A DNA stretch of 54,640 nucleotides from an uncultured Methanosarcinales archaeon (GCA_964510025.1 CAZDZV010000011.1:1-54640), one strand, 5' to 3'. Positions 7,281 to 42,700 are shown, numbered from the stretch's first letter. Translations and numbers: made by a program. Notes: generated from the sequence alone by a model not told the origin.

Positions 7281-8795
7281 CTACTTTTTGGTTACAGAAA
7301 CAACTAAATCCACCTGCTTGCCTGTCTTGATGTCTATATTGGGTTTCTGGCCATAACCTTTGCCGCTGACACGAAGCCCACCATCTGCATATGCTGTCCC
7401 CAGCTGGTTCGCAAGGTGCTGCATCTGCTCATCCGAGAAACCCACAATGCTTATATCCACATTGCTGGCATATCCATACGGCGGATTGCCCCAAACCCTG
7501 ACAATCCTTACCGGCCTTCTGAAATGCTCTCTAATAAGGTCAAGCTTCTGTATAAGGACCCTGTCAAGATAGAGATATCTGCATCCAGGGAAGACAAATT
7601 CCTTGACTCTGAAATGCTTGCCTACCTTGTCTTTTTCGTTAAGATAGAAATGGAAATACCCTCCTTTGCCGGTCGGTATCCTGGCTACCATAACATAAGG
7701 CTCCTTAAGGTCATCCAGTGAGCTGTCCCTGTAGTGTAGGGCAAGCGGCATAGGGTATCTGAACTGTCCAGCCAAAGCCCTTCTGCTTATATCAAGGCAT
7801 TGCCTCCACTCCCCTGCATTGTATGTTTCAGGGTCCTTTACCTTCGGATAGGTCGGCTCGGTCGGCAGGAAACATGAAAAAGCTTTTGGCTGCAGCAGGA
7901 CTTCCTTAAGCGCATCCGGAAAGCTTTCAGAGCTTACTCTGTCCAAAACACATGCTGCAACAGCCTCTTTTGCCTCCTGGCTGCACCCCTCTGCTTCACC
8001 AAATATGCACCTTGCTAGCACAACCTCCCTGGGCTCATCCCAAAAATTGCCATCTGAAGCATATCTGCTCTTGCTTATCCTTGGTTTCTCAGCTCCCTTC
8101 CTCAACGGTATGTTGATCTTCTGGCCTGGAAAAAGTATTGCCAGATTGACATCAGGGTTTGCCTGCTGCAGCGCTTCCTCAGGTTCTGCAGGCATCAGAT
8201 GCTGGAACCTTAGCAACGTCCCTATATGGTCTCCTTGTTTTACAGTATACTGGAAAGAGCCTGCTTTTGAGACAGATATCAAGGATATCACGATCAGCAA
8301 TACAGCAGCTACTCTTGCCAGGACAGGCAAGGATCTTGAACTGGCTATATTGGCCAGGGATGGGTTCTGATGGGGCAGATGGAGCGCATCAATGCTGGTT
8401 TCTATCCGCCTGTGCACAGGCAGCTCCTCAGACTCCCTGATCCTGAAGAAAAAATTAAGGTCATTCCTTGCGATGGCATTCTTCTCTTTTTTCAGCGCTT
8501 TCCTTAAGAGCTTCAGGTTATGCTTGCTTCTTTTTAGGAACCTCAAAAGGGAGCTGCAGTCCGTGCCTCTTTTTCCTGCTATTTCCACTATCCTCTCTTC
8601 GCCTGAAAGGATCTCGGCGATATCTGCCCTGATATGCTCTACCAACGGAAGTTCTTCATGTTCGATGAACTGCTGCAGTCCGGTACCCCCTCCTCTTATC
8701 ATATCTGCTTTTCTTTTTTGCAGATCCATGGCTGCATCGGCTGATGCTGTTATCGCCCTTCTCAGCCTTTGGAGATATATGTTGAAAGTATGCAT
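7281..8795 (-). CDS. Membrane-anchored LysM + SleB/Hydrolase_2 cell-wall hydrolase + degenerate peptidase M15-like domain
   Basis: YTVKQGD...ANP...LFPGQKINIP (LysM); LARCIFGEAEG...AVAACVLDRV...LLQPKAFSC (SleB); HFRVKEF...LIQKLDLIREHFRRPVRI (M15-like); one TM. Confidence 0.85.
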   Translation of the reverse strand: MHTFNIYLQRLRRAITASADAAMDLQKRKADMIRGGGTGLQQFIEHEELPLVEHIRADIAEILSGEERIVEIAGKRGTDCSSLLRFLKRSKHNLKLLRKALKKEKNAIARNDLNFFFRIRESEELPVHRRIETSIDALHLPHQNPSLANIASSRSLPVLARVAAVLLIVISLISVSKAGSFQYTVKQGDHIGTLLRFQHLMPAEPEEALQQANPDVNLAILFPGQKINIPLRKGAEKPRISKSRYASDGNFWDEPREVVLARCIFGEAEGCSQEAKEAVAACVLDRVSSESFPDALKEVLLQPKAFSCFLPTEPTYPKVKDPETYNAGEWRQCLDISRRALAGQFRYPMPLALHYRDSSLDDLKEPYVMVARIPTGKGGYFHFYLNEKDKVGKHFRVKEFVFPGCRYLYLDRVLIQKLDLIREHFRRPVRIVRVWGNPPYGYASNVDISIVGFSDEQMQHLANQLGTAYADGGLRVSGKGYGQKPNIDIKTGKQVDLVVSVTKK

Positions 8796-8868
8796 AAGCC
8801 TTTGCTCATGTTGTTGATATATATAGCTTTTGGTAAGATTTAAATATCTTCCATAAATATGCCCTTTT

Positions 8869-9207
8869 ATGAAACAGGTTATCCTTGTGCGGCAGGATCT
8901 GAAGCTTCCGAAAGGCAAGCTGGCAGCACAGGTAGCCCATGCTTCAGTTTCTGCCTTGGTCAGGTCTCATAAGGATGATATCAGGAAATGGGAGGCAGCA
9001 GGCCAAAAAAAGGTGGTCCTGAAGGTAAAAGACCAGGAAGAGCTTCTTAGCTATAAAAAGATGGCAGATGATGCCGGCCTTGTTAGTGCGCTCATCACAG
9101 ATGCAGGCAGGACAGTTGTCGAGCCAGGCACGATGACCAGCCTTGGTATCGGGCCTGACAAGGAAGACAGGATCGATAAGATAACAGGCAAGCTTAAGAT
9201 GGTATAA
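8869..9207 (+). CDS. pth2: Peptidyl-tRNA hydrolase 2
   Basis: KQVILVRQDL, GKLAAQVAHAS, DAGRT, GIGP. Confidence 0.96.
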   Translation: MKQVILVRQDLKLPKGKLAAQVAHASVSALVRSHKDDIRKWEAAGQKKVVLKVKDQEELLSYKKMADDAGLVSALITDAGRTVVEPGTMTSLGIGPDKEDRIDKITGKLKMV

Positions 9208-14649: not shown

Positions 14650-14828
14650 GGAAAAAATAATTTCTTTTATAAAACTATCTCACTAGTGAACACTATATTC
14701 TATTGTGATTAATTATAAATAGTAAGCAGTAATTATCACGGATATCTCCAGAATATTTAGTTGTTATTTAAAAGTGGTTAATGTATCGAAAAATTTAAAT
14801 AGCCCAGAATAACATCATCCATTATAAA

Positions 14829-15953
14829 ATGGTCACCCAAAGCCCAGACGTTGATGCAATCCATACTGCTTTAAGAGATGTTACAGGGCCGCTGGAAGAG
14901 CGGTTCATGGGTGTTCTTTTTGATACGCGTGAGCAGGCAGGAACCAGAAGAATGGGGCATGAAAGTCTGGCTGATAGGCTTCTGGCCGAAACACTCCAAC
15001 AGGTGGTTAATGATGCTTTGGCTCCTTGGGTGGATATTGAGTGGGAGATACAGCACGTTGAGGAATCTGCTTTAAGATCAAGGCGAGTTGCCGGCGGCGA
15101 AGAAAGGGAGTTTGCTTATCCAATTGTCAGAGGCCATGGATACCCCTTGCCAGGTCACGGCAACACGACCAGGGCACTTGATCCGATAAAAGCAAGATAC
15201 AAGCTTTGGGCCGAAGTGCCTCCTGAAGTTAAGGGCAGGATATCGAGAAATGCCGCTATGCTGCTCAGCCTTAATTATCCTGACAGCGACAGCTCAATGG
15301 TAAGTGTTTTGAAGCTGCATTCGGGGGAAATACTAAGTGCAGTAAGAAGAAGGCCAAATGAGCACAGCGACGGTTTTAGGGGGGGAAAAGAGCTGGTGCC
15401 GTTGAGGCCTGAGGAATACAGGATAGATCCCTACAAGGCTATCCGGATTATCAATCCCAACTACTTAGGTTCCTTGGCCAATGAAAGACATCTGGGCGAG
15501 TTTCGTCATCGAATTCGATCCTATTGCCAGATGTTCGGCCCGCAGGGCTTTGATGTGAGTTTTGATGGAGCTGAATGGAACACAGCATGCGATATAGGGG
15601 CAGCAATCATTGTACGTCATCAGGCTGTAGGATATGTGGATGTTCGTAGCCTTACTCCGAATATCAACCCCGAAAGGGACGCAAGGCTAATCATTTCAGA
15701 TATCAGGGTTCCAGCACATATTATTGAGACCGTTAATTATCATGTAGGCACAACCGAAGAAGCTCCTTTAGATAGGTTTCACGACATGTCAAACCTGTCC
15801 GAACCGCTGGATGCTATGTTTTTGGCGCCCGACCTTATTAATGGAGCATTAGGATTTGACTTCAGGGAAGCTGTTTTGGATGGTAGGGTGGCATATCTGA
15901 GGAAATTTTACGAATTTGAAGGCGTGCCAGGAATCCTAAACAGATACAACTGA
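14829..15953 (+). CDS. Divergent inositol-monophosphatase/FBPase-fold protein with altered catalytic motif
   Basis: SLADRLLAE, VEES, ALDPIKAR (for IDPIDGS), SGEILSA..GFRGGKEL, GYVDVR, ISDIR occur in the same order as in archaeal IMPase/FBPase. Confidence 0.7.
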   Translation: MVTQSPDVDAIHTALRDVTGPLEERFMGVLFDTREQAGTRRMGHESLADRLLAETLQQVVNDALAPWVDIEWEIQHVEESALRSRRVAGGEEREFAYPIVRGHGYPLPGHGNTTRALDPIKARYKLWAEVPPEVKGRISRNAAMLLSLNYPDSDSSMVSVLKLHSGEILSAVRRRPNEHSDGFRGGKELVPLRPEEYRIDPYKAIRIINPNYLGSLANERHLGEFRHRIRSYCQMFGPQGFDVSFDGAEWNTACDIGAAIIVRHQAVGYVDVRSLTPNINPERDARLIISDIRVPAHIIETVNYHVGTTEEAPLDRFHDMSNLSEPLDAMFLAPDLINGALGFDFREAVLDGRVAYLRKFYEFEGVPGILNRYN

Positions 15954-17776
15954 ATGATGGATGTTACATTTTTTCAAAAGCAGAAGACGGAACCGAGATA
16001 CAGATTGATGATCCAGGAGCAGTTAGTGTTGCGCAGACAGAAAGGTTTGAAGAGCTTTGTACTCTAGGCGCTCGTTTTTTAGGCCAAAAAAATTATCAAT
16101 CTGCTTTAGAACCTCTAATAAAAGCAAGAGATTTAGTGGAAGCGGCCATCAACGCTGAATCCACTGCTTCGGATTCTATGAGAAATGACTATCAAAGGAT
16201 TATACAACTTAGGAAGTTTGCAGCAGCTGTCTACGGAAACCTCGCCTATGCTTATCTTGGATTGGGCCTGGAAAGGAAGGCTGGCCCGAAAAAAGGTGAC
16301 GAAGAGCCCTCAGAATTGGAAGACCTAATAGAGTCAAAGCACTTTGCAGATATGGCTGTTATGCACAATCCCCATGATGTGAATCTTCTTCATTTTTTAG
16401 GCAATCTGCATGAAAAATACGGTGAACAGCTTCTCGATACAGATAGGGGAGGAGCCTTAAGAAGAGCCAGAATATATTATCGATATGCCATGGAGCAGCT
16501 CAAGGATGATCTTGATGGAAAGCAGAAACATGAAAATGCCATCCAGCAGGAGACCATACTAAGGGATCTGGTTGCAGTTCTGCAAGAGCTTGTGCAACAT
16601 TATGGGGGCAACGCTCGGCAGGTTTTAGAGCAGGAGCTGAAGCAGGCCCAACAACATAGACGATCACTACATATAGAGCCGTTACAGACTCTAGAGAGAT
16701 TGGCCCGAGAAACAGGTAAGGATTTTGCAGCGATAAGAGCAGGATTGCATGAGTTTGATGTTTCCCCGCACGTAAGAGAAGGTTGGATAGAAGCTGCCTG
16801 CAAGGTTCTGGAGGACAGGATTGGATTTCCAGCTCTGCAAGAGATCTCCGAGCGAGCTATAGTCATTTGGGCGACAACGCAGACCCAAAATTATATACTG
16901 GAGCAAGTTATAGGTGAAGGTGCGTACGGTGTAGTATTCAAGGGCGTTAATAGCGAGGTAAGGGATACAGAAAGGGCAATCAAGATACTGGATGCATTGC
17001 AGAGGACAAGAAGATACATCGAAGAGGGCGGAACAGATCAAAGGCACCTGGCCATCCAGGAATATCGAAAAGCTCAGCTAACCTGGAAGAATTTTGATGC
17101 CGCAAAACAATATATTGTGGAGGTTGTAGACATATACTCTTGTGGGGACACTAGCAGACCGGTTATTGTACTGGAAATAATGGACGGTGATTTTGGCCAG
17201 TACCAGGCCACATGGGGGAAGCCAGCAGAACGGCTGGATCCTGCCAAGCATTTTACGCTGAATATTGCAGAGGCATTGAACTGCCTGCACAATCTAAGGG
17301 ACCCCTTATACCATAGGGACTTATCTCCGGGAAATATATTATTCTTAAAAAGGGGAGATGAAGTAACCTACAAGCTTGCAGATTTTGGACTTTCTGCAGT
17401 GGGCGCGGATGAGTCGCCACTGGGCCCGTCGCTTGCTTCAGTTTATATAAGGCCTCCAGAAGAAAAAGCTACTAATGTAGCAAGGGACCTTTATGCAGCA
17501 GGATGCAATATAGTCCTTGCGTATACTGGTATGCAACCCTTCACACAAGGCCACGACCGGCCCGAGGATTCCGACGACCCTACTGCCAGAAACCGATTTG
17601 AAGAAGATGTGTGGAGGGCAAAAATGGAAAGAGAAGGACTGGATCAGCTATGCGGGCATCTTCCACCAGGTTTAGCCGATATCGCGCTAGATCTGCTTAA
17701 TCCAGATATGAAAGCCAGAACGATAACGACTGCAGAAACGCTTCTTGGCAGGCTGCGGACAGTTTATAGCGGCTAA
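15954..17776 (+). CDS. TPR-like + Hanks-type Ser/Thr protein kinase; N-terminus frameshifted at T6 run 15969-15974 (in-frame GTG at 16136)
   Basis: IGEGAYGVVF, AIKIL, HRDLSPGNIL, DFG, RPPE, RDLY; TPR-like helices in the N-terminal half. Confidence 0.88.
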
Positions 17777-17777
17777 A

Positions 17778-18635
17778 ATGATAGATTTAGATCTTCTTGC
17801 GACATTTTTTCTAGGTGTTACGAGGCATATCGGTGATAATATTTTGGTTCCGAACCAGGATATGGTTGCTATAGCTTTGGATCGTTCTAAACCTGTGCCG
17901 CCAGGTGCAGATGCTCATGCAGCTCAAGCGCACTGTGAATTAGATGATATAGCTCAGGAGTATTTTCTAAACCAGGTCATAAGGCAAATTCCTGGAGCAA
18001 GGTCCATGAGGCTTATTGTTGAGGAGGATACGCCTACAGTTGAGGCATTTGCATCTTGTTCCAATGAAGTGTTGTATGGTGATTTATTGGATGGTACTTC
18101 TAGGTACGGGTATCGTGGAAAAGATGAGGCAGAGCAGCGCAAACGTTTTGGCTGCCAGGTAAGCTATGCTGCTGATGCTCAGATGCGGGCAGCAGCTGTC
18201 TATCTCCCAAGATTGGGACTGCAATTCCATGCAGTCTACAATAGAGGAGCCTATCTCAACGGAGAACGGCTTATATTGGCCGATGCACCTGTTTCAGGCA
18301 AATTTATGGTAAATTCAAAGCTTCCGGATGAGGCTGTGCGACGCCTGGAACAAGATCAGATTGATGTGGAAAGGCCAAAATGTACTGTATATGCCGTATC
18401 GCAGCTATTGCTTGGGAAGGTGGATGCATATATATCCAAGCACACCGCTGTATGGGATATAGCTCCTTTTTCTCTCATTGTTGAGGAAGCAGGAGCGTGG
18501 CAATCACGCTGGAACCTCTCGAAACCGGACTTGAATACGAAAGACTTGGTAGAAGACCATATCATAGCCTGCAGCCGTGGATATGCTGTTGATGCACTTG
18601 TAAGAGCGGGGCTTACACATTCAGGGCCACGATGA
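17778..18635 (+). CDS. Inositol monophosphatase family protein
   Basis: VEED, DLLDGT, GAYLNGERL, WDIAPFSLIVEEAG. Confidence 0.88.
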   Translation: MIDLDLLATFFLGVTRHIGDNILVPNQDMVAIALDRSKPVPPGADAHAAQAHCELDDIAQEYFLNQVIRQIPGARSMRLIVEEDTPTVEAFASCSNEVLYGDLLDGTSRYGYRGKDEAEQRKRFGCQVSYAADAQMRAAAVYLPRLGLQFHAVYNRGAYLNGERLILADAPVSGKFMVNSKLPDEAVRRLEQDQIDVERPKCTVYAVSQLLLGKVDAYISKHTAVWDIAPFSLIVEEAGAWQSRWNLSKPDLNTKDLVEDHIIACSRGYAVDALVRAGLTHSGPR

Positions 18636-19527
18636 TGCCCAGCAAGCAGAAGACCTTCTGGTATATGATAGACAAGTTGTGTATGATGCTGATCTCCTGC
18701 CTCGGTGCCTTTTGGAATAACCTATAGGATTTATCTACAAGCCTTTTTCTCCTTTGCGCAACGGAATCTGCAAGCTCCGGACTGAAGTTATAGAACATAT
18801 TATGCAAATCCCTTAATATCTGATTGGTCTCATCATAAAATTGCAGCGTTTGTTTTGAAATAGTAATCGTGCTGTGCATATTCAGGAAATAATCACATAT
18901 ATATTTGTAATGGTCAGCTAGCCTTTCCAGCTCTTCCACTATATAATATATGAAATTTGGATTAGGGTATTCCGGAACCCCCAGCTTATTGATTATCCTC
19001 CTGCACACTGTGACATACCTGTTGTTGGTAAGTTCCATGAAGCGCACGTTCTTTAGGCTTTCATAATCCTTTTTCTTCACAGCTTCTAGGCTGTCTGTTG
19101 CCATCGTATTCAACAGAAGGAAAGTCCTCCTTAAGATTGTATCAAACTCATTGAGGACAGGATCAGATATGCATTTTATCAGGCAATGGGTATCGGTCTG
19201 CTTGACTATCTCATAACCAAGTGTCTCCTCCCTGATTGCTTTCTGTATCTTACTTGATAGTTTTGAATCTGAATACTCGATTCTGATTTCATCTATCCCT
19301 TTTTTATAAAGAGCATGTATTGTCCTTGGGATGATGGTGTTGAACCTATCCAGCTTCACCTCAGCAGACATCAAGGTACTGCCCCTCTCATTTGATATCT
19401 TAAGAAATTTACCCAGGTCTTGGATCTCTACCTCATCGCCAGGTTTAACAGAATTCTTTTCAGTCCACTTAGCCGGCAGCGTTATCGTCAGCGTGTTATG
19501 CCCCTGCTTGATAACCTTCCTCTTCGT
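18613..19527 (-). CDS. AbrB-PhoU phosphate-uptake regulator family protein (apparent ACG start)
   Basis: Frame extends to ACG-KRKVIKQGHNTLTITLPAKW...GDEVEI; PhoU region ILRRTF...ELERLADH. Confidence 0.85.
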   Translation of the reverse strand, partial: TKRKVIKQGHNTLTITLPAKWTEKNSVKPGDEVEIQDLGKFLKISNERGSTLMSAEVKLDRFNTIIPRTIHALYKKGIDEIRIEYSDSKLSSKIQKAIREETLGYEIVKQTDTHCLIKCISDPVLNEFDTILRRTFLLLNTMATDSLEAVKKKDYESLKNVRFMELTNNRYVTVCRRIINKLGVPEYPNPNFIYYIVEELERLADHYKYICDYFLNMHSTITISKQTLQFYDETNQILRDLHNMFYNFSPELADSVAQRRKRLVDKSYRLFQKAPRQEISIIHNLSIIYQKVFCLLGIIVALNV

Positions 19528-19544
19528 TTTAGGTCACGTTAAGT

Positions 19545-19579
19545 AATAAATACGAAGGAATATATAAATTTTTCGAAAA
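19545..19579 (-). promoter_or_regulatory. BRE/TATA promoter block shared with the paralog at 21006-21040
   Basis: 29 of 35 nt identical, ungapped. Confidence 0.65.
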
Positions 19580-19671
19580 ATATTCTTTGTAAAAAATATA
19601 TATTCCACTAGTGTGATATATATTCAATAAGGATTAATTATTTATAGTCCGTAAAAGACACGTTGATCAAG

Positions 19672-20082
19672 ATGCCCATAGATCTCACGGTTCAGAAGGC
19701 TGAGACATTTGAGCCTCCGGAAGGGCTTGCCGTATTTCTAGGTATGAAGGATCAATATGGCGTCGTGGTCTTTTCCTACAGGAGATACGACTGTGGCAGT
19801 GAAGATTTTGTCGACGCCCAGGTGACCCTGAACGCCCATCATCTGAGAGCCTTCATGCGGGACCGCCTGCTTGGTCAGCCCTCCACCCTGCATAACTGCA
19901 GGGGATATGTCCGCCTTGAACAGCTCCAGAAGAACAGGTTTCGGGTGGAGATCCACGGTGGCGGAGCTGTGGGCTGCAGGTATGTTACCTCCAACGCATA
20001 TCTTTCAGATGTAGCATTAAGGCTGCTGAGCGAATATGCAGAAGGCTCCCGTCGTCCTAACCCAGCTCCAGAGCCAGTCTAG
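19672..20082 (+). CDS. Hypothetical protein
   Basis: 136-aa ORF after TTTATA; no motif recognised. Confidence 0.55.
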   Translation: MPIDLTVQKAETFEPPEGLAVFLGMKDQYGVVVFSYRRYDCGSEDFVDAQVTLNAHHLRAFMRDRLLGQPSTLHNCRGYVRLEQLQKNRFRVEIHGGGAVGCRYVTSNAYLSDVALRLLSEYAEGSRRPNPAPEPV

Positions 20083-20998
20083 GCTCTGAGATGTGGTAAT
20101 ACAGCTCAAGGATCTGCCTCATCATCACTATCAGTGCCTGCTCATTGGCTGGTACCCTCCCTAGCAGGGTTCGTTCCTTTTTCCTGACATTCCATCTGGC
20201 CTTCGCAAGCTCTATCATCATATCATTGTTCGGGCTGTAAAAAAATTCATAGAACCGTCTGTTCTGTTTTTCGATTTCTTTCAGGATTCTTAAAGTTGTG
20301 TTCTCAAGCCTTTTTTGCCTGAAGCTCAGCAGGTCCACGCTTGCATACTTGATTATATCGATGATGTCATCCAGGGTAGTGATCATATAGTAAAGGGAAA
20401 CACTGTCGCTGGCCTTTCTCACCATCCCCTTGTTGATGAGCCGCAGGCAGTAAAATATAAACTTGCCTATGTTGAAATGCCTGTCTCTCATCCCTGCCAG
20501 GGACGTCTTGTCCATGCTTTCCGCAAAAGAGTAGAAATCCCTTCCGTAATCTATGATCAGCAGAAATATACGTCTCAGGGCATTTTCAAACTCCTTTTCT
20601 GAACCGAATGTGAAGTCCTTGATTGTGCAGCGGTTTTTGGCCTGGTGGATGATCTGGCAGCCCAGCAGCAGATTTACCTCCTCGTTTATTACGTCTACTG
20701 TCAGGTACCTTTTTCCTGTCCGGAGCTCTGTCACGTCCGAATTCCTGAACTTTATCGTTATCTCATCATAGCCTTTCTTGTAATATGACCTTATGTTCTG
20801 GCGTATGGAGTTATGGTCCAGCCCGGATATGTCTATCTCGATCTTTTTTGATCTCTGCTTGGCTGACAATACGAGCGCGTCGCCCATATCATTTACATCA
20901 AGCTCATCCCCTCTTCGAAGCTTGTTTGCCTCAGACCATTTCCTCGGCAATGTCACCGTAAGCGTATTGTTGCCTTGGCCGATGACTTTTCTTTTCAT
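20057..20998 (-). CDS. AbrB-PhoU regulator family protein
   Basis: MKRKVIGQGNNTLTVTLPRKW...GDEL; YYKKGYDEI; ALRRIF; YCLRLINK. Confidence 0.88.
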   Translation of the reverse strand: MKRKVIGQGNNTLTVTLPRKWSEANKLRRGDELDVNDMGDALVLSAKQRSKKIEIDISGLDHNSIRQNIRSYYKKGYDEITIKFRNSDVTELRTGKRYLTVDVINEEVNLLLGCQIIHQAKNRCTIKDFTFGSEKEFENALRRIFLLIIDYGRDFYSFAESMDKTSLAGMRDRHFNIGKFIFYCLRLINKGMVRKASDSVSLYYMITTLDDIIDIIKYASVDLLSFRQKRLENTTLRILKEIEKQNRRFYEFFYSPNNDMMIELAKARWNVRKKERTLLGRVPANEQALIVMMRQILELYYHISEPRLALELG

Positions 20999-21005
20999 AT
21001 TTCGG

Positions 21006-21040
21006 AATAAATACGCCAAAATATATAAAATTTACGAAAA
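21006..21040 (-). promoter_or_regulatory. BRE/TATA promoter block shared with 19545-19579
   Basis: TTTTCGTAAATTTTATATATT-N4-CGTATTTATT on minus strand. Confidence 0.65.
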
Positions 21041-21680: not shown

Positions 21681-22526
21681 ATGCAAGCCAAGCTGCCCTA
21701 TAGGGTTGCCCAGGATTATGAAGAGCTAAGCGATGAGATCACAGATATCGTGGCCCAGACAGTGACAGATAAGCCTGATGCTGTCATACTGGTCCCAGGG
21801 TGCAATACCCCCCGTGGATTTTACCGGAGATTCTCGTCCCGGGTAAGGCAGGGGTTTGTTGACATCTCCGCTGCAACGATAATGACAGTTGATTCGCCGA
21901 TCGGTCTGGAGATGGGGGATCCACGATGCTTCCGGATGTTCATGTACGAGAACTTCTACAAGTTTATGTTCGGCCCCATACCTGAAGGTACGGATCCTGC
22001 CCAATACCTGGAAGATTTCTATGGCGAGCACCCAAATTTTGTGGTCCCCTATGTGCCCATCGATGCAAATTCAGCGCAGGCTGACCAGCTCGCTTACGAG
22101 ATGGGAGTTCTGATAAGCTCAAAAGGCTATGCTGACCTTGCCTTTTTAGGGTTGGGCAAGGCATGGCAGGATAATGGAGAGCTGGAAGGAGGCCATATAG
22201 CATTCAATGATCCTGGCTCAAGCATCGACTCGAGAGCAAGGGTGTTAGACCTTCATCCCCGTACAATAGACTTAAAGTTCAGAAAAGACTCCGGCCTGTT
22301 TGATCCTGCAGAAGTAGTGCCTACAAGGGCTATAACCTTAGGTGTATATGAGCTGCTGCAGTCCAGAAAAATACTCTTGGCAGCTTCAGGAAAGGGCAAG
22401 GAGGTTGAGGTGAAGCGTCTTCTCGAGGGAGAGATGTCTGACAGGTTTACATCTACCTACCTGCATTCTGCAAGAGAAAGGACGCTTGTTCTGGTCGACA
22501 GGGAGGCAGCCGGACTCTTAAGATGA
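21681..22526 (+). CDS. nagB: Glucosamine-6-phosphate deaminase-like protein (NagB family, divergent)
   Basis: GHIAFNDPGSS, VPTRAITLGV, LLAASGKGK; phosphate loop diverged (PGCNTP). Confidence 0.8.
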   Translation: MQAKLPYRVAQDYEELSDEITDIVAQTVTDKPDAVILVPGCNTPRGFYRRFSSRVRQGFVDISAATIMTVDSPIGLEMGDPRCFRMFMYENFYKFMFGPIPEGTDPAQYLEDFYGEHPNFVVPYVPIDANSAQADQLAYEMGVLISSKGYADLAFLGLGKAWQDNGELEGGHIAFNDPGSSIDSRARVLDLHPRTIDLKFRKDSGLFDPAEVVPTRAITLGVYELLQSRKILLAASGKGKEVEVKRLLEGEMSDRFTSTYLHSARERTLVLVDREAAGLLR

Positions 22527-22681
22527 GCGAATACCGAAGAGTAATAACCTACAAAAAAAAGTTGATAGGTGAAGCGCTACTTGAGTTTGGACTAGAGCCT
22601 GAAGATCTTAGTGACAAGGTTAAGGTGCATGTGGTTTCTGCTTATCCAGAGGACACAGCAAAAGCCCTGCGGGAGGGATAA
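22523..22681 (+). CDS. Small hypothetical protein (52 aa) between nagB and pgi
   Basis: ATGA overlap with the nagB stop; ends 1 nt before the pgi ATG. Confidence 0.5.
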   Translation: MSEYRRVITYKKKLIGEALLEFGLEPEDLSDKVKVHVVSAYPEDTAKALREG

Positions 22682-22682
22682 A

Positions 22683-24059
22683 ATGGGATTAACTGTTGCG
22701 TTAACAGGCTTCAAAGTCGATTTAGAGACGCTTGGCGAGTGTGCATATTATAATGGGGTGAATGCCCTAATAAAGCTGGCAAAAGCGTCCAGGGCGTTTC
22801 AAGATGATGCCAGGGAAGTCATTGTTGGAGACACAGTATTTGCCAATCCCACATGGATCACCCTGGGAACAGATTTAGCTGCCATAAAAGAAAGGGCATC
22901 CAGATACAGAAGCAGGAAGAACCAGGCAATCATAGCAAACGGCGGCAGTCTTGAGCCTGCTATGGCTATCTACACTGCTCTTCTAGAAAAAGGACAGGCA
23001 ACTGTATGGAATGTTGATTCTCCAAATCCAGATGATCCAGCAATAGCTGCCATGATACACCCGACAAATGAGTTTAGCCGAAAAAATAGTTACCTGTATG
23101 CAGTAAGCAAATCCGGCGAGACATTGAACGTTATCCTGCAGGCCCTTAAATTTATGGCTTCAGGTTTTGATGTTGTTCCGATAACAGACGACAAGCAAAG
23201 CACTCTGAGGACTGTCATTGACAGGGCTGGCCTCGATTTTATCGCCCATACAGATGTGGGCGGCAGGTTCACCTCTAATCAGCCCAATTCATTGATACCC
23301 TTATATGCGGCCGCTTTTTACAGTGATGCTGCAGACCCATCAGCGGCCTATGCCGAGCATCTTGATGACTTTGTAGCTGGACTTAATTCAGCAGCACAAA
23401 GATTTGCACCTGCTATACCTGCTGAAGATAACCTGGCAAAGAAGCTTGCCTTGGCGCTATATCGCGCAGAGCTGGCCGGCTACTGTGAGATCTACATGCC
23501 GACCTACAGCAAGCGCCTGATGGGAAGCGCAGGCATCACAACACAGCTTTTTCATGAGACTTTCGGAAAAGGCGGTAAAGGCCAGACCCTTTTGGCAATG
23601 GAAGGCCCTGAATGCCAGCACCATACAAATCAGCGTTTTTTTGGGGGTTATCCTAATATGATGGGCCTTTTGGTCGGAGTCAGAAATTATGCTGAGCCTG
23701 GTGAAGGCCTCTGTGCAGACGTGTCCGGTTATGAGGACCTTAAGGTAAAGGGCATAGGCAGCCTTGGCAGCATGCACGGCATGTCATTCGCTGATTTGAT
23801 GCAATTTGAAAGGCTGGGGGTATATGATGCTGCAAAAGAGAAAGGCATACCTGTCATAGACATCACACTGGATAGGGTGGATGGTGACAGCTTGGGAAAA
23901 TACATGGCGCTGATGCAGGCTGTAGCGATGTACAGCGCTTTCCTGAGAGGCGCCAGGTGGGAGGATCAGCCAGCTGTCGAAGATTCAAAAGTCAGGACAG
24001 TCCAGATGGCAAGGCACCATAAGCTGCAGGAAACCTATATGGTGGGTGATGGGCTTTAG
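22683..24059 (+). CDS. pgi: Glucose-6-phosphate isomerase (SIS-type, divergent)
   Basis: NGGS, SKSGET, VGGRF, QLFHETFGK, QHHTNQ, DQPAVE. Confidence 0.85.
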   Translation: MGLTVALTGFKVDLETLGECAYYNGVNALIKLAKASRAFQDDAREVIVGDTVFANPTWITLGTDLAAIKERASRYRSRKNQAIIANGGSLEPAMAIYTALLEKGQATVWNVDSPNPDDPAIAAMIHPTNEFSRKNSYLYAVSKSGETLNVILQALKFMASGFDVVPITDDKQSTLRTVIDRAGLDFIAHTDVGGRFTSNQPNSLIPLYAAAFYSDAADPSAAYAEHLDDFVAGLNSAAQRFAPAIPAEDNLAKKLALALYRAELAGYCEIYMPTYSKRLMGSAGITTQLFHETFGKGGKGQTLLAMEGPECQHHTNQRFFGGYPNMMGLLVGVRNYAEPGEGLCADVSGYEDLKVKGIGSLGSMHGMSFADLMQFERLGVYDAAKEKGIPVIDITLDRVDGDSLGKYMALMQAVAMYSAFLRGARWEDQPAVEDSKVRTVQMARHHKLQETYMVGDGL

Positions 24060-25776: not shown

Positions 25777-25872
25777 AAGGATACAATTGCAGGGCGGATA
25801 TAAAAATCTTCTGTTATGCATAACATTTATAAAAAAAGTTGCATTTTCTTCTACAAAGGTATAGGTGAAATT

Positions 25873-26379
25873 ATGCATTATTTACTGGATATAGCACGGA
25901 GAGTAGGCGTTGCAGTCTACAGCGCAGTTAAAGGGCAAGCTGGACAGCCAGCCCTGGCACCAGCAGGATTAGATGCATTGCTTGCAGGGCATCAAGGTGG
26001 CGCAACTGCAAGACACGTCGCAGTGGACCCTAATCCAGAATGGAGACTGTTATCACCTGAAGCAAGGGCTTTCGCTGTTCTAAGAGAAGTAGGGGAGCTG
26101 GATTATGATCCTTTGAAAGGAAGTTTGCGTGGTCCAGCATATAGGCATGGCAGCACTATTGTTGATGAGCTGTTCGGGTCTGAGCAGGCGTGCATGCAAG
26201 CTGCAAGGGATCTGGGAGAAGTTGAACGAAACAGCAGAGCACCAATCAGCCGTGAAAGAATGCCTATACTGATCCGGGGAGAACTAGATAGACAAAAAGA
26301 TCCTCAAGAAAGAGTATTGATGGCATATGTAGTTGCAGAAGAGCTTAGAAGGACAGGAAGATACGAGCGGCAACACTGA
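25873..26379 (+). CDS. Hypothetical protein
   Basis: AGGTGA RBS, 168-aa ORF. Confidence 0.6.
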   Translation: MHYLLDIARRVGVAVYSAVKGQAGQPALAPAGLDALLAGHQGGATARHVAVDPNPEWRLLSPEARAFAVLREVGELDYDPLKGSLRGPAYRHGSTIVDELFGSEQACMQAARDLGEVERNSRAPISRERMPILIRGELDRQKDPQERVLMAYVVAEELRRTGRYERQH

Positions 26380-26461
26380 ATCTAGCTATAAAAACGATAT
26401 ATTTATATAGCATTTTATCACTCTGAAGTAATAATTAATGTATTAGAATAGGGACTATAAG

Positions 26462-28723
26462 ATGAACATAAACGTGCTGCGGGCTGAATACCCCGACCTT
26501 GAGGATATTCTGACTGCTGCTTCTGCACTGCCGGATGTTGAAGCCGCACTCACACTTGTGAGAACCGGCATCGATGCTGGATGGGATTCTGAGGATTTAG
26601 GATTTATGGTGGGGGCAGCGTCTTTTCTGAATGATCCGTCTGTCAGAGAACAGCTGTACAAATTCTTGCATAGGAGAAACCTGGGCTGGTTGAGTGATTA
26701 CACTGTCCATGAAGTGTTTGGTCAGCTCGCTATATGGGCAGAGGAAGGGTGGACAGGTCACGATATCCATTCTTTTCTAGCGTCAATAAAAAGGTCGGAG
26801 CCTGAAGATATTTTCAGGCAAATAAGATCTGATAGATTTGCAGCAGACACTGGCATGGTTAGGGCCCTCTATGAGCAAAAAAGGATAGAAGCAAATCCCA
26901 GGAGGATTGCTTTCGCAAGAGCGAAACATCCAATATTGGATAAGCTATGCAGCGAATATGGCCCTGAGCATGGGTTCCAGGCTCACGAGCAGCTTATGGC
27001 CCTTGTGAGAAATGCATTTGGTGAGGTGGTATATGCTACTAGCAGAAAGATGCCAGAGGAAGCAAGGGTGTTTGTCGCAGAAATGTACCTGGAGCGGGCA
27101 GATAATGACAGGCTACGGGGCGTCATCAAGCTCCTTACTGAAGAAGAGGTCTTCCATACAGAGGTGAATGAATATTCCTACAGGACAAGGCTAGGTCTGG
27201 ATGACACCAGGCATTTTGCAGCTTCTGTAGTAAATGTAGCAGGAAGGCCTGTCTATTATGCGGTCGCGATGGGATACCTTGGCCAGCTTAACATCGCTAA
27301 CTGGCTTAATGTGATGAGGCACGTAGAAAGAAAAGGTCTTTCCGCTGATCAGCAGGAGTTGCTGAAGCAACAAAGGATAAGGTTGTTGGGCTTTGCAAAC
27401 GACATGGTCGGGCAGCTTCACGCGTATGCAAGAACCGCAGAGAGGGGAAGAGATGACTCAGCAGGAAGATCATATAAATTTCTAAGCCATCTCACAGAGT
27501 TCACTCAAGCAGCTAAAGAAGCAGGGTGTCTTGAATCTGACTATCCTCTGGCTAGTGCATTAAGGACAGCAAAAGCAATCATATGCCCTAGTGTAGATGA
27601 GTTAGCGGCCTACATCGCTGCGATACCCGTAGTAGCCTACTACGATGCTGTCACCAAGAACTTTCCAGTAGAGGAGACCGACCAAAGAGAGGACGAAAGG
27701 GTTATGATGCTGCCGAGCCTTTCTAGGACAAGCAATCTCTCGGCACGTATTCTGGCCTACAATCTGTACCTTCAGAATGAATCTTCTGGTTCAGAACAAA
27801 GAACACCAGTCAAGCAGCATTTAGTAAACAATGTAGACAGGTGCTCAGTGAGGAATGAGCCAGGTGTCTTTGACCTGGCTAATCTCTACCTGACATCCAT
27901 TTTTGCCAGATCCCATGATCCACAGCAGCTCAGGGCGCAGATCAGGATTCTTCTTTGGCATTATCTTTTCTCATATTCCCACCATGTTCAGGGGTATAAT
28001 AGGCTTGTGGAACAAGTAGAGATGGAGCCAATACCTTTTGTGCAAAGGCAGATACATTTTGATGTTCAAAACCGATTTGCCTATTTTGTGGATCCAGAGA
28101 TTTCAAAGGGCTCTCTTGGCACAGCAGCGATAGGGGTATCTGGGTTTCTTGATACAATATCGAGAAGCCTCAATGTCTATTCTGTTTTTGAAAATATTGA
28201 GTTTTACCTGGACAGACAAGATGCGCCTGCAGCAGTCCAAAGGTACTTCGACCTGATAAAGCAGCTTGTTACAGTCCATCTGAAACCCAAGGAGAACAGT
28301 TACTTTGCAAACGGCAATTACCGGCATGACCTCGATCCAGATGCTGTGGGGCTCCTAAGTTGTCTTCTAGAAGACAATAGCCCATCAGTCCAGGAAAGGG
28401 TGTTTGAAATTGAAGCTGATCTGTACGCCTCAATGCCTTTCCGGGCAGCTATGATTGCCGATACTGTCCCTTTTTATGTGTCTCAGGATGGCAATCTTAC
28501 TCCGGAAAGGATCGACTACTATCAGGTACAGCTAGGTGCAGTTGTCCAGGCACTGGAAATACTGAAAGAGGAATTTGTGTTGAGAACTGGCGGCAGATAT
28601 TTAAGAAGAAAGCTGGATCCTCAAAAACTGGAAGACATTACCGGTGGGTTCCGCACATTTTATGATATAGCAATGCATCTGCAGCCTGGAAGGATAACTG
28701 GCTATCAGGGAGGTTTTAGATGA
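26462..28723 (+). CDS. Large hypothetical protein (753 aa), possible degenerate APH-kinase-like central domain
   Basis: Long ORF; 4-nt overlap with the downstream PHP gene. Confidence 0.7.
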   Translation: MNINVLRAEYPDLEDILTAASALPDVEAALTLVRTGIDAGWDSEDLGFMVGAASFLNDPSVREQLYKFLHRRNLGWLSDYTVHEVFGQLAIWAEEGWTGHDIHSFLASIKRSEPEDIFRQIRSDRFAADTGMVRALYEQKRIEANPRRIAFARAKHPILDKLCSEYGPEHGFQAHEQLMALVRNAFGEVVYATSRKMPEEARVFVAEMYLERADNDRLRGVIKLLTEEEVFHTEVNEYSYRTRLGLDDTRHFAASVVNVAGRPVYYAVAMGYLGQLNIANWLNVMRHVERKGLSADQQELLKQQRIRLLGFANDMVGQLHAYARTAERGRDDSAGRSYKFLSHLTEFTQAAKEAGCLESDYPLASALRTAKAIICPSVDELAAYIAAIPVVAYYDAVTKNFPVEETDQREDERVMMLPSLSRTSNLSARILAYNLYLQNESSGSEQRTPVKQHLVNNVDRCSVRNEPGVFDLANLYLTSIFARSHDPQQLRAQIRILLWHYLFSYSHHVQGYNRLVEQVEMEPIPFVQRQIHFDVQNRFAYFVDPEISKGSLGTAAIGVSGFLDTISRSLNVYSVFENIEFYLDRQDAPAAVQRYFDLIKQLVTVHLKPKENSYFANGNYRHDLDPDAVGLLSCLLEDNSPSVQERVFEIEADLYASMPFRAAMIADTVPFYVSQDGNLTPERIDYYQVQLGAVVQALEILKEEFVLRTGGRYLRRKLDPQKLEDITGGFRTFYDIAMHLQPGRITGYQGGFR

Positions 28724-30003
28724 ACGAAGCGTATTTTGATGGCCACACCCACCCCACAGCCTGGTCTTTCGACGGTATTATGTCTCCATGGGAGCCCCCA
28801 CAATTTTGGTACCAGGTGAAAAGAGAGTTCTTGGATAACAGGCCCCTGGCGGTTGCGATGACAGATCATGATACAACTGTGGGGATCGAACCTGTACTTT
28901 TTGAGCTGGACCAATACAATAGGCGTGAAGCCATACCTATGGACGATCAAGTGGAACCAATCTGTGGCGTTGAGGCTACAGGCCAGTTTGAAGGATTCTC
29001 TACACATATTTTGGGCTATTGGCTACAGAAGGATAATGAGACCCTGCAGGCACTGATGCCTTACATGCAGCAGGCTCAGGATATCCTTTTCCATACCAAT
29101 CAGGCCAGCAAGAGGAAATATGGCTATTTTGGGCTGAACCTAGTGAAAGAATGGGCAAAGGGGCAAGGCTTTCCAAACTGGGATGATATTTCGCTCGAGA
29201 TGTTGGAAAGGCTCAGGGACGGACAGCTCCCCCACATACGGAACCAATATTCACTGGATAGATGGGTTATCGGACCATATGAGGATCATCAACCCAGGAT
29301 AACAGGATTGAATTGGATGCATCTTGCCATGGCTATGGCGGAGCTCGAGTGGTGCAGTCTTGAAGAAGCCAAGAGTAAGGTAAAAAGAGGCGGGGAACTG
29401 TATGTATCAAAGGCACAGCCTTTTAGGGTTCCCAGCACCGCCGAAGTCATATTTGGGCTTTATACCTCCAGATGTCTGGTAGTGATGGCGCATCCGCAAG
29501 AGCTAATGTGCCAGATGATTGAGGACAGATTGGCAGGAGAAGGGCTTGACAGGCTACCTGAGAATGATGTCGGGGATTCGATAGTTGAAGAGGTGATTGG
29601 CCTTATTGCGAAATTCATCGAAGAAGGCGTGCCAAACGGCCTTAGGGGGCTGGAGCTTTATAATCGCTTCAGCTATAGGGATACTGTCTGTGAATATATG
29701 ACGCAGCGTCTGGAAAAGCTTGTGGCTGATTTTAACGGCCCAACAGATGCACCTCTGCTCGTTACTGCAGGATCAGACAACCATGATGGAATTAAGGATG
29801 AAAAAAGGCAGCTTGCAAGGCTTTTGCGCCAAAAACCTGATGTTTACCAGGGCCCATGGATCCACAGGAATAGCTGGCATGAAAGGCCCAATGCTTCCAC
29901 ATTAGAACAAAGGATAGAAAGGCGCCGTATAGATGCTAGTTTCTTGAAGAAAATGAAGGCTGCTCCACTACAAGATGATGGACTGTATCCCCTTTCTTAT
30001 TAA
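28720..30003 (+). CDS. PHP-domain metal-dependent phosphoesterase (TrpH/YciV-like)
   Basis: DGHTH..SFDG, MTDHDT, GVE, HILGY, MAHP, GLE, AGSDNH. Confidence 0.9.
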   Translation: MNEAYFDGHTHPTAWSFDGIMSPWEPPQFWYQVKREFLDNRPLAVAMTDHDTTVGIEPVLFELDQYNRREAIPMDDQVEPICGVEATGQFEGFSTHILGYWLQKDNETLQALMPYMQQAQDILFHTNQASKRKYGYFGLNLVKEWAKGQGFPNWDDISLEMLERLRDGQLPHIRNQYSLDRWVIGPYEDHQPRITGLNWMHLAMAMAELEWCSLEEAKSKVKRGGELYVSKAQPFRVPSTAEVIFGLYTSRCLVVMAHPQELMCQMIEDRLAGEGLDRLPENDVGDSIVEEVIGLIAKFIEEGVPNGLRGLELYNRFSYRDTVCEYMTQRLEKLVADFNGPTDAPLLVTAGSDNHDGIKDEKRQLARLLRQKPDVYQGPWIHRNSWHERPNASTLEQRIERRRIDASFLKKMKAAPLQDDGLYPLSY

Positions 30004-30917
30004 TACCTGAGCGCCACTGCAGACGGACAAAGCTCAAGGACCTTCTGGCATGCGTTGCCAAGATAGTAGACAATTACCGTATCCTTTTCTGATCCTGTCT
30101 TGATGACCTTCGTTATGTCCTTTTTTACTCTTGTCACCTCATCGACAATGCTGCTTAGGATCTGATCATCCTTTTTGTAATATGCTTTGTAGAACGTATC
30201 GATAATGTTTATTGTTTTCTCAAAGATGCTTACGGTCTCCTTAGCCAGGGATATTCTGGACTTATTCTCGTAGAGGTATCTGCATAGGTCCCTAAAATCA
30301 TCAGCTATCTTCTCAAATTGCCAGACTATGACATACACAAAATTTGTTTTTGCAGGATCTTTATAGCCTTTTTTGGTAAGCAGGCGCTCGCAGAAATTGG
30401 TCAGCTTGTTGTTCGTAGATTCTAGGACAATTATCTCCTTAAGATCTTCAAACTGACCCTTCTTTATTATATCATAGCTTGATTTTGCCATAGATAGGGT
30501 AACTAAAAATATCCGCTTTAAGATTGTCTCAAACTCGCTCTCAAGGCCAGTGGCTATGTTTTTTATTATGCTGTACTTGGGTGTTTGTTCGATGATCTCA
30601 AATCCCATTATACCTTGATTGATGGTATCCTGTATGATTTTCGCGATCTTCGCATCTTTATATGTTAGCTCCATCTCATCGTAGCCGCTCTTATGGAAGA
30701 CAAATATCATCCACCTTATGAACTTTTCATTCAGGCTGGATACGTCTGCCTGGACTTTTTCACCTTCAGCGCCTTTTTTGCTTTGGACAATCATTTTATT
30801 GCCCTGGATTTCTATGTCAAGCTCATCCCCTTTCTTTATTCCGTTCCTAATCGCCCATTTCCTTGGCAGCGATACCAGCTGCGTGGAATCTGCTATCTGG
30901 ATAACTCGTCTTTTCAT
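30000..30917 (-). CDS. AbrB-PhoU regulator family protein
   Basis: MKRRVIQIADSTQLVSLPRKW..GIKKGDEL; FCERLL; FEKIADD. Confidence 0.88.
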   Translation of the reverse strand: MKRRVIQIADSTQLVSLPRKWAIRNGIKKGDELDIEIQGNKMIVQSKKGAEGEKVQADVSSLNEKFIRWMIFVFHKSGYDEMELTYKDAKIAKIIQDTINQGIMGFEIIEQTPKYSIIKNIATGLESEFETILKRIFLVTLSMAKSSYDIIKKGQFEDLKEIIVLESTNNKLTNFCERLLTKKGYKDPAKTNFVYVIVWQFEKIADDFRDLCRYLYENKSRISLAKETVSIFEKTINIIDTFYKAYYKKDDQILSSIVDEVTRVKKDITKVIKTGSEKDTVIVYYLGNACQKVLELCPSAVALRY

Positions 30918-34474: not shown

Positions 34475-34927
34475 ATGGCATTTCAGGCATATGTAGCACT
34501 TGGGACAAGAGAAAGCCTCTGTCATTTGGCGCAGGATATTGTAAAAGTCTTTGAGGGACATGAGCTTGTGAGAGATTTTGTACCTACACCAGATGGTCCA
34601 GTGCCCCTAGGTCCTGTCAGCTCTCTTAAGGCAGGCCCCATAGACGCTCTGTTTCGAGGAGATCACTATGAAGCATGGATACATCCTCCTGGTGGGGATA
34701 TCGTAGCAGCATCAGGATATAGCAGAAACCCGGAGCTTAAGAGAAGGATATTGTCGGTCTCAACCCCTGGCCATGAACCAGATCTAGCCCTGATTGCAGC
34801 GATGGAATACGAAACACAAAATAGCCTAGTCAACCAGATCCAGTGGGCCCTGAATTCAGCATATGCAGGAACAAGAGGACACGCAACAGCACGCATAGAC
34901 AATGGACAGGTTACAAGACTTCTTTGA
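34475..34927 (+). CDS. Hypothetical protein
   Basis: 150-aa ORF after TTTTTAAA; no motif recognised. Confidence 0.55.
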   Translation: MAFQAYVALGTRESLCHLAQDIVKVFEGHELVRDFVPTPDGPVPLGPVSSLKAGPIDALFRGDHYEAWIHPPGGDIVAASGYSRNPELKRRILSVSTPGHEPDLALIAAMEYETQNSLVNQIQWALNSAYAGTRGHATARIDNGQVTRLL

Positions 34928-35609
34928 GTTCCTTTAGCTTAATCTTTCCTTTGTAGATAGCCATCCCCAATGCACAGTCAATATCATTTTCCTGCAGTTC
35001 CTTAACCTCATCAATAGAGGTTATCCCTCCTGCAGCAGTTATCCTGTTCTTGGTGTTTTTCCTTAGCGACTTAAAGAAATCAACATCTGTGCCTTGCAGC
35101 ATGCCTTCCTTGTCAACATAGGTAGCCAGGAATTCAGAGCAGTAAGGCTCCAGCTGCTTGACAACATCAACAGCCATCAATCCTGTCTTTTTTTTCCATC
35201 CACCGACGACTACCTCTCCTTTAATCGAGTCAATGGCGATTATTATCCTTTCTTTTCCGATTTTTTTATTAAGATTTCTGACAAACTCCAGGTCAATGCC
35301 ATTCTTAAAAACGCTTGATCCAACAATTATCTTTTCAGCTCCCAGATCAACAATTTCTCTGGCTTTTTCAACAGTACGGATGCCCCCGCCTACCCTACAC
35401 CTGATCCTGGATATGATCTTCTTGATGAGAACACAATTATTTCCCTGACCCATAGCAGCATCAAGATCTATCAGCTGAATAGTCCCAAAAGGCCTGAATC
35501 TTGAGATAAATCTGCCAAAATCCTTGCTTTTAAATTTCTTATTCTCTCTCCTGCCCTGGACTAGCTGAACCACCATGCCGTCCATCAGGTCTATGCATGG
35601 ATATATCAT
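34911..35609 (-). CDS. hisA: ProFAR isomerase
   Basis: YPCIDLMDG.VVQL, IDLDAA, VGGGIRT, DKEGMLQG, AAGGI. Confidence 0.93.
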   Translation of the reverse strand: MIYPCIDLMDGMVVQLVQGRRENKKFKSKDFGRFISRFRPFGTIQLIDLDAAMGQGNNCVLIKKIISRIRCRVGGGIRTVEKAREIVDLGAEKIIVGSSVFKNGIDLEFVRNLNKKIGKERIIIAIDSIKGEVVVGGWKKKTGLMAVDVVKQLEPYCSEFLATYVDKEGMLQGTDVDFFKSLRKNTKNRITAAGGITSIDEVKELQENDIDCALGMAIYKGKIKLKELKEVL

Positions 35610-36364
35610 CTTACCTTGCTGTAAAACTCCTCTTGCTTTATTATCTCCATGCCTTCTTTTTTTGCCATATTTTTTCCCTCTTCACTCTCAAATCCCCAGT
35701 CTGCCAAATAACACCTTATCCCGGTGCCTCTAACAGATTTCAGAGCAAAATACCTGTCATCAACAAACCTGATCTCTTCGGGCCCTGCCCTTTCCAGCAG
35801 CTCGTCAACAGCCTTTCTCTTTCCATTGTCAACATCCATATAAGCAGCATCAAATACCTTTTCTATGTCCAGCCCGTATCTAACCAGTACCTTTTTAATG
35901 AGGTCTCCCCTGTTTCCTGTGATTATCACTATCTCAAAGTCCTCCTGCAGCCTCTTCACGTCCTGTATGACTGATCCATGGGGTGGTGTCAGCTTAAGGA
36001 AGGCCTCAAAGTCCTCCTCCTGCAGCCTCTGCCTCTCATTATGGAACTTTTGCCTGAAACCACTGTCAAAATGCTTTCTGCTGTATGCCTCAAAATCAGC
36101 CTTGCTGCCTATCTGTACCCCATTATCGATAGCAGACATAAGAGATGAAAAAAGGCATGCATTGTCGCATAACGGCCTTAGCTCTGTGAATCTTTTTTCA
36201 ATATCTTTCAGCTCTGACTGGATCAGGCCAAAGTTTTTGCTGCTAAGTATGACATTCCTAAGCCTCTTGAAACCATAGAGCTTCTGATAGATATTGTAGG
36301 CAACAGCAAAAGTCTCAAGCCTGCTGTCCACCAGCACCCCATCATAGTCTAGTGCAACTATCAT
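35606..36364 (-). CDS. HAD-superfamily hydrolase within the his operon
   Basis: [25 protein letters not shown]; overlaps hisF and hisA by 4 nt each. Confidence 0.85.
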
Positions 36365-39488: not shown

Positions 39489-39583
39489 CTTACCATCTTG
39501 TTCCATTTCCACTGGCCTATTATCACCCAATAGATCGCAAGAAAGCTGATTATGGACAATATCACTATCAGCATGCTGTTCAT
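39485..39583 (-). CDS. 32-aa single-TM peptide translationally coupled inside the his operon
   Basis: MNSMLIVILSIISFLAIYWVIIGQWKWNKMVR; ATGA overlaps at both ends. Confidence 0.65.
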   Translation of the reverse strand: MNSMLIVILSIISFLAIYWVIIGQWKWNKMVR

Positions 39584-42670: not shown

Positions 42671-42700
42671 CTTTCGCTCGCTAACAGCCTCCTGTTGTAC

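Follow-up and report, generated by a model that had tools for sequence, protein, structure and literature searches.

We studied a kinase/phosphatase locus on the plus strand of a 54,640-nucleotide (nt) contig from an uncultured Methanosarcinales archaeon (GCA_964510025.1, CAZDZV010000011.1:1-54640; this whole stretch is called the window). An earlier note had read the locus as an operon of three genes. Our analysis shows that it consists of two: a fused sensor-kinase gene (gene A, 14829-17776, about 990 codons), which is interrupted by a one-base frame switch around position 15935, and a phosphatase gene (gene B, the third gene of the earlier note). As the best overall explanation, which we hold tentatively and at slightly less than an even chance, gene A encodes a kinase with a pseudoenzyme sensor that is paired with a phosphatase, and its kinase half is silenced in this organism.

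With the first open reading frame (ORF1) as query, all of 1.84 billion representative proteins were scanned by HMMER, and three matches were obtained: ORF1 itself, P0006 (1011 amino acids (aa), 60% to ORF1, E 5e-121) and P0007 (1028 aa, 53% to ORF1, E 3.4e-92). P0006 represents a cluster of three proteins that differ by one residue each. Both homologues are single chains with a C-terminal Pkinase domain, and no ORF1 homologue of similar length was found among 5.8 billion proteins searched. The kinase frame of the window matched the same two proteins (40%, E 1e-129 for P0006 and 38%, E 4e-127 for P0007), with alignments starting at residue 6-7 of the frame. When tblastn was used, residues 7-376 of P0006 aligned to 14847-15923 in one frame and residues 382-1006 to 15935-17767 in the other; identity over ORF1 was 55% to P0006 7-376 and 46% to P0007 9-404. 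The only homologues are single-chain proteins that match ORF1 as well as the kinase frame; ORF1 and ORF2 therefore belong to a single gene, and the three-gene operon was not borne out. Of the tight same-strand packing that had been described, the TAA-A-ATG junction, ORF1 and gene B stand, but the TGA-ATG junction does not: the ATG at 15954 opens a 37-codon frame, probably incidental, and the kinase lies in the other frame. The single promoter box ahead of the unit was confirmed as a TATA box at 14794. Together with the BRE-like (B recognition element) sequence before it, this is the sole plausible promoter found for the unit; genome-wide, TATA boxes peak 28-32 nt before starts.

The intact relatives of gene A are almost certainly cytoplasmic proteins of about 1000 aa that comprise an N-domain, a short variable linker, TPR-like helices and a Hanks kinase. 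No 19-residue window exceeded a Kyte-Doolittle value of 1.27 in any of six proteins and no transmembrane segment was evident; by this measure the gene A protein is cytoplasmic. As found here, the fused-kinase family comprises three lineages. When the fused alignment served as a profile, the search returned no additional member, its four other matches being weak and to Pkinase proteins that cover 9-25% of the query. Relatives of the fused gene were found in none of 60 genomes and none of 400 genomes of the order (overlapping draws). Nine weak matches (E 0.008-0.1) were obtained in 300 genomes of the phylum; seven of these were labelled by eye (five RNA-polymerase-like, one FtsZ-like, one unassigned), and the other two contain internal stops. 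Scans of metagenome, genome and viral contigs for N-domain patterns found no relative, scans for the PGHGNTTR motif gave four and five loci, all by chance, and a plasmid scan gave one weak topA match only.

The C-terminal domain of gene A is, judged by its motifs, a Hanks-type Ser/Thr kinase. The Pkinase profile scored 77.6 bits for the window kinase (cut-off 31.7), 68.6 for P0006 and 76.1 for P0007. The Gly loop, VAIK Lys, alphaC Glu, H[RK]DLSPxN catalytic Asp/Asn, DFG, subdomain IX Asp and subdomain XI Arg are kept in all three lineages; the canonical APE that ends the activation segment is absent (IRPPEE, IRDVQT and IRDPHP). The middle region shows the helical repeats of a TPR fold, and the VIA rows of the structure search with P0006 cover this part alone. 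Both the Hanks motifs and the TPR-like helices had been seen in the earlier note, and both were confirmed, with the APE region non-canonical. Pairwise conservation was 58-64% in the N-domain core, 37-40% in the TPR region and 42-48% in the kinase. Because it is the best-conserved part of gene A, the N-domain is not a decaying relic. The excerpted text of PMC5300886 describes ArnC (Saci1193) of Sulfolobus acidocaldarius as a TPR and eukaryotic-type protein kinase, likewise a soluble archaeal Hanks kinase with TPR motifs ahead of the kinase. The likeness is one of description, not of pairwise alignment: ArnC lacks an additional enzyme-like domain at its N-terminus, and no archaellum context was seen for gene A. 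An unrelated Hanks kinase of 627 aa with an unknown N-terminal half is encoded in a genome of the same family (L126, G004:C142:881-2764, minus strand).

Gene B matched PF00459 at 48.6 bits (cut-off 27) and keeps all metal ligands of inositol monophosphatases (IMPases): D57, E82-E83, D102, D105, T107 and D227, among them those of the EE, DxxDGT and WD motifs that had already been recognised. In an IMPase whole-model alignment it came first, above all 339 decoys (z 7-11). As a member of the IMPase/FBPase/CysQ/HisN superfamily (PF00459; PRK12676 for archaeal FBPase-IMPase) it is nevertheless far under every subfamily cut-off, with 14-28 bits against the NCBIfam HisN, CysQ, SuhB and archaeal FBPase-IMPase equivalog models (cut-offs 229-332; for HisN 27.9 vs 275). 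The strict Prosite patterns PS00629 and PS00630, as printed in the excerpt of PMC2834668, matched neither P0003 nor P0004, and both matched the control P0005. According to the same excerpt, most IMPase homologues of M. tuberculosis likewise deviate from these patterns (PMC2834668). On its sequence features gene B is a divergent IMPase-family phosphatase, predicted to be catalytically intact. It is surplus to housekeeping needs, because the genome also has a canonical IMPase on contig C9 (E 1.3e-52) and, inside the histidine (his) operon, a TIGR01548 HAD phosphatase that is likely the histidinol-phosphatase. The gap to gene A is 1 nt and gene B has no TATA box or Shine-Dalgarno (SD) sequence of its own, and because of this arrangement co-transcription with gene A is suggested.

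That gene B is instead a chance neighbour in a variable region, with the fused kinase alone as the unit, is a real possibility, although we think it somewhat doubtful. A homologue search with gene B, which was word-based and can miss homologues, gave three matches: itself, an ordinary IMPase and the ortholog-level protein P0004 (39%), whose contig is 1915 bp long. A pattern scan of metagenomes found no relative. The search therefore returned no gene B ortholog on any long contig, although P0006 and P0007 lie on contigs of 8-19 kb, from which a conserved neighbour could have been called; this weighs mildly against a conserved kinase-phosphatase pairing. The scans returned neither of these contigs, and a second IMPase-kinase-IMPase arrangement did not turn up. 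Divergent IMPases are also common in the order, with 90 of 401 genomes matching the gene B profile at E<=1e-10 (closest 2.5e-22), and the three family relatives that carry the flanking DUF357 gene have other genes at the site. Loci fetched for 79 distinct IMPase ORFs held no kinase of the fused family; the three-sequence kinase profile used there tests this family only and also missed the two distant kinases of the genome. On the other hand, a chance neighbour is not what the 1-nt gap and the missing promoter and SD signals suggest. Moreover, genes A and B are both near-orphans whose codon usage is atypical to a similar degree (2nd-8th percentile), and two adjacent IMPase-like modules would be unlikely by chance if the fold of the N-domain is called correctly. 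Other IMPase fusions were seen separately in related genomes: ORFs of 400-664 aa at loci L077-L083 (G098:C6, G434:C3, G201:C4, G441:C1, G438:C6, G164:C6) contain IMPase domains, and none carries a kinase of the fused family.

The N-domain itself probably has an IMPase/FBPase-superfamily fold that lacks the DPxDGT aspartates and the EE ligand and is under strong selection. In the ESM Atlas, ORF1 gave matches of 0.91-0.92 to clusters of 345-389 aa; 27 of 30 belonged to a set whose best cluster is named 'Inositol monophosphatase family' (12% of its members carry PF00459), and all of the ten best family-bearing matches share the family or clan of that cluster. This placement agrees with the IMPase call made independently, by eye, in the earlier note. 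In the by-eye register, DPxDGT corresponds to Y[PA]LPGHGN (for example YPLPGHGN), so that Y and P replace the metal-ligand aspartates; the EE pair is present in the window copy only and absent from P0006 and P0007, while the Asp of the loop (D49) and that of the WD motif (D291) are conserved. The N-domain thus resembles superfamily members in motif order and differs in the DPxD and EE ligands. When compared with 22 diverse IMPases by hhalign, its best local match was the C-terminal motif in the expected register, with FD/SD opposite WD (E 0.16, not significant). The predicted order of helices and strands in P0006 1-210, set beside the general IMPase topology, is compatible at low confidence with the N-terminal half of the fold. 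The claim that the first gene is IMPase-like with a broken motif accordingly stands for the ligand loss and the Atlas pointer, and lacks a significant sequence or profile match.

Several results weigh against this assignment. Pfam, NCBIfam, PHROG and PDB sequence searches with the N-domain were all blank. Profiles of 30 and about 80 IMPases gave nothing significant, and hhalign reached E 0.16-0.36; three of the sequences in these profiles and in the whole-model alignment below came from genomes flagged as unpublished (G135, G210, G338), our genome tallies also include flagged genomes, and no positive claim rests on flagged genomes. With genome decoys and four gap settings, the whole-model alignment ranked the three N-domains 210-318 of 340, whereas the true IMPases, gene B and P0004, ranked first. 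The Atlas match shares 136 of 256 features, under the 170 typical of same-family matches, and P0006 1-378 had no usable named match in the Atlas. Structure prediction gave a pLDDT (predicted local distance difference test) of 32.5 for ORF1 alone and of 47.1 for P0006 with a six-row alignment, the N-domain being mostly below 50. The Foldseek check proposed in the earlier note was of no help in either direction: these low-confidence models had no match at E<=0.001. A complex prediction of P0006 1-378 with gene B of the window (different organisms, shallow alignments) scored 0.00 and is not used as evidence. The failure of the sequence tests would also fit an N-domain that is a rewired active enzyme, for example with conserved His and the two remaining Asp, or another fold altogether, in which case the kinase would act on it, or be controlled via it, by protein contact and not by ligand sensing. 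The strong conservation of the N-domain speaks for such a reading, as do its invariant residues (GHE, PGHGNTTRAL, H164, H221, H264, D49, D291), which look like a selected site; such invariance says little, because only three lineages are known. We regard this reading as unlikely: with Y and P at the ligand positions and the EE pair missing from both homologues, IMPase-type catalysis is improbable, and the Atlas and the by-eye call independently indicate an IMPase.

We further considered a kinase that acts as a toxic effector against viruses or the host and is restrained by the N-domain, with the frameshift having removed a costly toxin. The very patchy distribution and the variable genomic site would fit this, and the best profile matches are the defence kinases MAD6 and PD-T4-6. 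However, similarity to MAD6 (MADS), PD-T4-6, MkoA and Stk2 is confined to the kinase domain and falls far short of the threshold wherever one is provided (48.7 vs 460 bits at the sole curated cut-off). Full-length matches and partner genes, as expected for MADS, PD-T4-6 or Stk2, were not found, no other PADLOC model matched ORF1 or gene B, and the scanned neighbours included no recognisable defence gene. A toxin thus seems quite improbable, and for the defence module that had been suggested earlier we found nothing specific beyond generic kinase-domain matches.

The break in gene A is real DNA. Two Logan contigs cross it with no gap and no differing letter, from run X1 (15003-16048, depth 6.6) and run X2 (14769-15988, depth 5.5). 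The runs stem from two samples within a single study, and the source sample may be X1 itself, which limits the weight of this evidence. The break is best placed around 15933-15937, upstream of the ORF1 TGA. Because both halves are stop-free, keep their motifs and show no further lesions, the frameshift looks recent. At the site where P0006 carries Pro, the -1 frame likewise encodes Pro, as expected if a single base was simply lost. The kinase frame is -1 relative to ORF1 and open from 15920; its first ATG, GTG or TTG is GTG 16136. This codon sits inside the TPR-like region, so that a start there would drop the first TPR-like helix, and neither an SD-like word nor a properly placed TATA box was found upstream of it, although the genome uses both signals. 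The likeliest product in the source strain is, as predicted from these features, a free N-domain with little or truncated kinase; no RNA datasets carrying the locus were listed. A T6-C-A4 run at 15969-15979 was ruled out as a frameshift site linking ATG 15954 to the kinase, as homology in the kinase frame begins upstream, at 15935.

The split could in principle be functional, through programmed -1 frameshifting at C CUA AAC or through re-initiation at CTG 15950, which overlaps the ORF1 stop, yielding a free N-domain along with a full or coupled kinase. Both halves are intact, and termination-reinitiation at overlapping codons has reportedly been found in archaea. CTG is a poor start, however, and encodes a Leu common to P0006. 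A programmed site is defined by X XXY YYZ with a structure 5-9 nt downstream; at the switch, none of the 11 positions holds a perfect heptamer and one holds a heptamer with a single mismatch, a chance occurrence in 27% of 11-codon windows, and there is no stable downstream structure (z 0.42 and 0.86). Programmed -1 frameshifting is known in archaea from fucA1 of Sulfolobus solfataricus, which, in the excerpt of PMC8211752, is likewise one gene in two overlapping ORFs in -1 relation with full-length homologues elsewhere; unlike gene A, it combines a canonical A-rich slippery site with a putative stem-loop. Given also that both homologues are unsplit and that the shared Pro fits single-base loss, we consider a functional split a little more improbable still than a toxin. 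An assembly error in a gene that is intact in the cell, as the intact homologues and the low depth of the metagenome assembly might suggest, is hardly credible in view of the independently assembled contigs from two runs.

We therefore return to gene A as a pseudoenzyme-sensor kinase. If the fold is right, the N-domain would, on balance, be expected to bind, but not hydrolyse, a phosphorylated small molecule (sugar, inositol or nucleotide phosphate) and to switch the kinase via oligomerisation and the TPR linker, by analogy with the HisRS-like domain of GCN2. Gene B would be the co-transcribed IMPase-family phosphatase, and it is an evenly balanced question whether it may clear the same ligand. 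In the source strain, a recent one-base frameshift near 15935 probably stops translation after the N-domain, and the kinase half would be silent, or a 546-aa form truncated at the N-terminus would be made weakly by starting at GTG 16136. GCN2, an eIF2-alpha kinase with a HisRS-like pseudoenzyme domain according to the excerpt of PMC11363354, is the closest analogy for how gene A might work, as it too joins a Hanks kinase in one chain with a metabolic-enzyme domain without catalytic elements. It remains an analogy: there is no homology beyond the kinase, and the module of gene A is N-terminal, probably IMPase-fold and TPR-linked. In the boldest form of the idea, which we rate as unlikely, the locus is a prokaryotic counterpart of the GCN2 principle, a two-gene reader/eraser circuit in which an IMPase-fold pseudo-phosphatase-TPR-kinase reads a phosphorylated metabolite, possibly host-derived, and the adjacent active IMPase erases the signal.

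The control of the kinase by a dead module, probably of IMPase fold, as originally supposed, is supported by the fusion into one polypeptide in both other lineages and by the conservation of the N-domain. Overall, the original observation was partly confirmed and its interpretation partly supported. TPR-kinases in archaea (ArnC) and pseudoenzyme-sensor kinases in eukaryotes are already known; no IMPase-like/TPR/kinase fusion was found in our searches of the openly accessible literature. If the fold call holds, the N-domain adds a new sensor domain to those of prokaryotic Ser/Thr kinases and is a case, undescribed as far as our searches show, of the IMPase fold repurposed as a pseudoenzyme, and it offers a testable handle on metabolite sensing in ultra-small archaea. 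With two intact, predicted soluble homologues (P0006 and P0007), structural, ligand and kinase work is straightforward. The family is very rare and broken in the source strain, which limits its general weight.

Table 1. Features of the kinase/phosphatase locus (window coordinates)
Feature	Position	Strand	Remarks
BRE-like CGAAAAA and TATA box TTTAAATA	14787..14801	+	TATA at 14794, 35 nt upstream of the ORF1 ATG
ORF1, 374 aa: N-domain of the fused gene and a few out-of-family tail residues past the frameshift	14829..15953	+	
Frame switch	15924..15940	+	P0006 homology in the ORF1 frame up to 15923, in the -1 frame from 15935 on
Near-slippery heptamer C CUA AAC	15935-15941	+	One mismatch
37-codon out-of-frame ORF from ATG 15954	15954..16067	+	
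Linker and TPR-like helical region, kinase frame	15935..16894	+	
Hanks-type Ser/Thr kinase domain, stop-free, non-canonical APE region	16895..17776	+	
Gene B (gene 3), 285 aa, divergent IMPase-family phosphatase	17778..18635	+	Metal ligands intact

The genome comprises 1.70 Mb in 33 contigs and is 97.7% complete; the window is contig C11, and its genes are archaeal-type. The locus is flanked by DUF357 on one side and a PhoU-domain regulator on the other. DUF357 was found in three of the four same-family genomes searched, and all three carry different genes on the kinase-locus side; in G004, DUF357 immediately follows a gene that lies 9.4 kb away in the window. The site of the locus is thus a variable region. 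Between 14300 and 24400, no element ends or long repeats were seen. The same variable block contains a pair of very divergent proteins (21681-24059, plus strand), one like glucosamine-6-phosphate isomerase and one like glucose-6-phosphate isomerase, which possibly provide a related sugar-phosphate context.

Three AbrB/PhoU-type regulator paralogs are encoded on the minus strand (18613-19500, 20057-21019 and 30000-30917). A 46-nt repeat (19534-19579, 20995-21040) lies upstream of two of them, with palindromes at 19557-19624. At 25816-30003 (plus strand), two orphan ORFs (187 and 753 aa) precede the gene of a PHP-like protein with a weak RNase RNM match; homologues of the two orphans were found in the same order in G004 (locus L124), where they adjoin a folC-like gene. 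A 545-aa protein (7281-8918, minus strand) carries a SleB-type cell-wall hydrolase domain (Hydrolase_2, E 2.9e-10) with, by eye, a LysM-like segment ahead of it and a peptidase-M15-like tail, and is likely an archaeal peptidoglycan hydrolase. A Peptidase M23 protein (52706-53713, minus strand, E 2.7e-23) is the second candidate peptidoglycan-active enzyme of the contig. Amino-acid biosynthesis is unusual in reduced archaea; the window contains a compact his operon (34911-43060, minus strand) in which three HAD-type genes lie scattered among the his genes, in the order hisI, G, D, C, TIGR01548 HAD, B, H, HAD, F, HAD-like, A.

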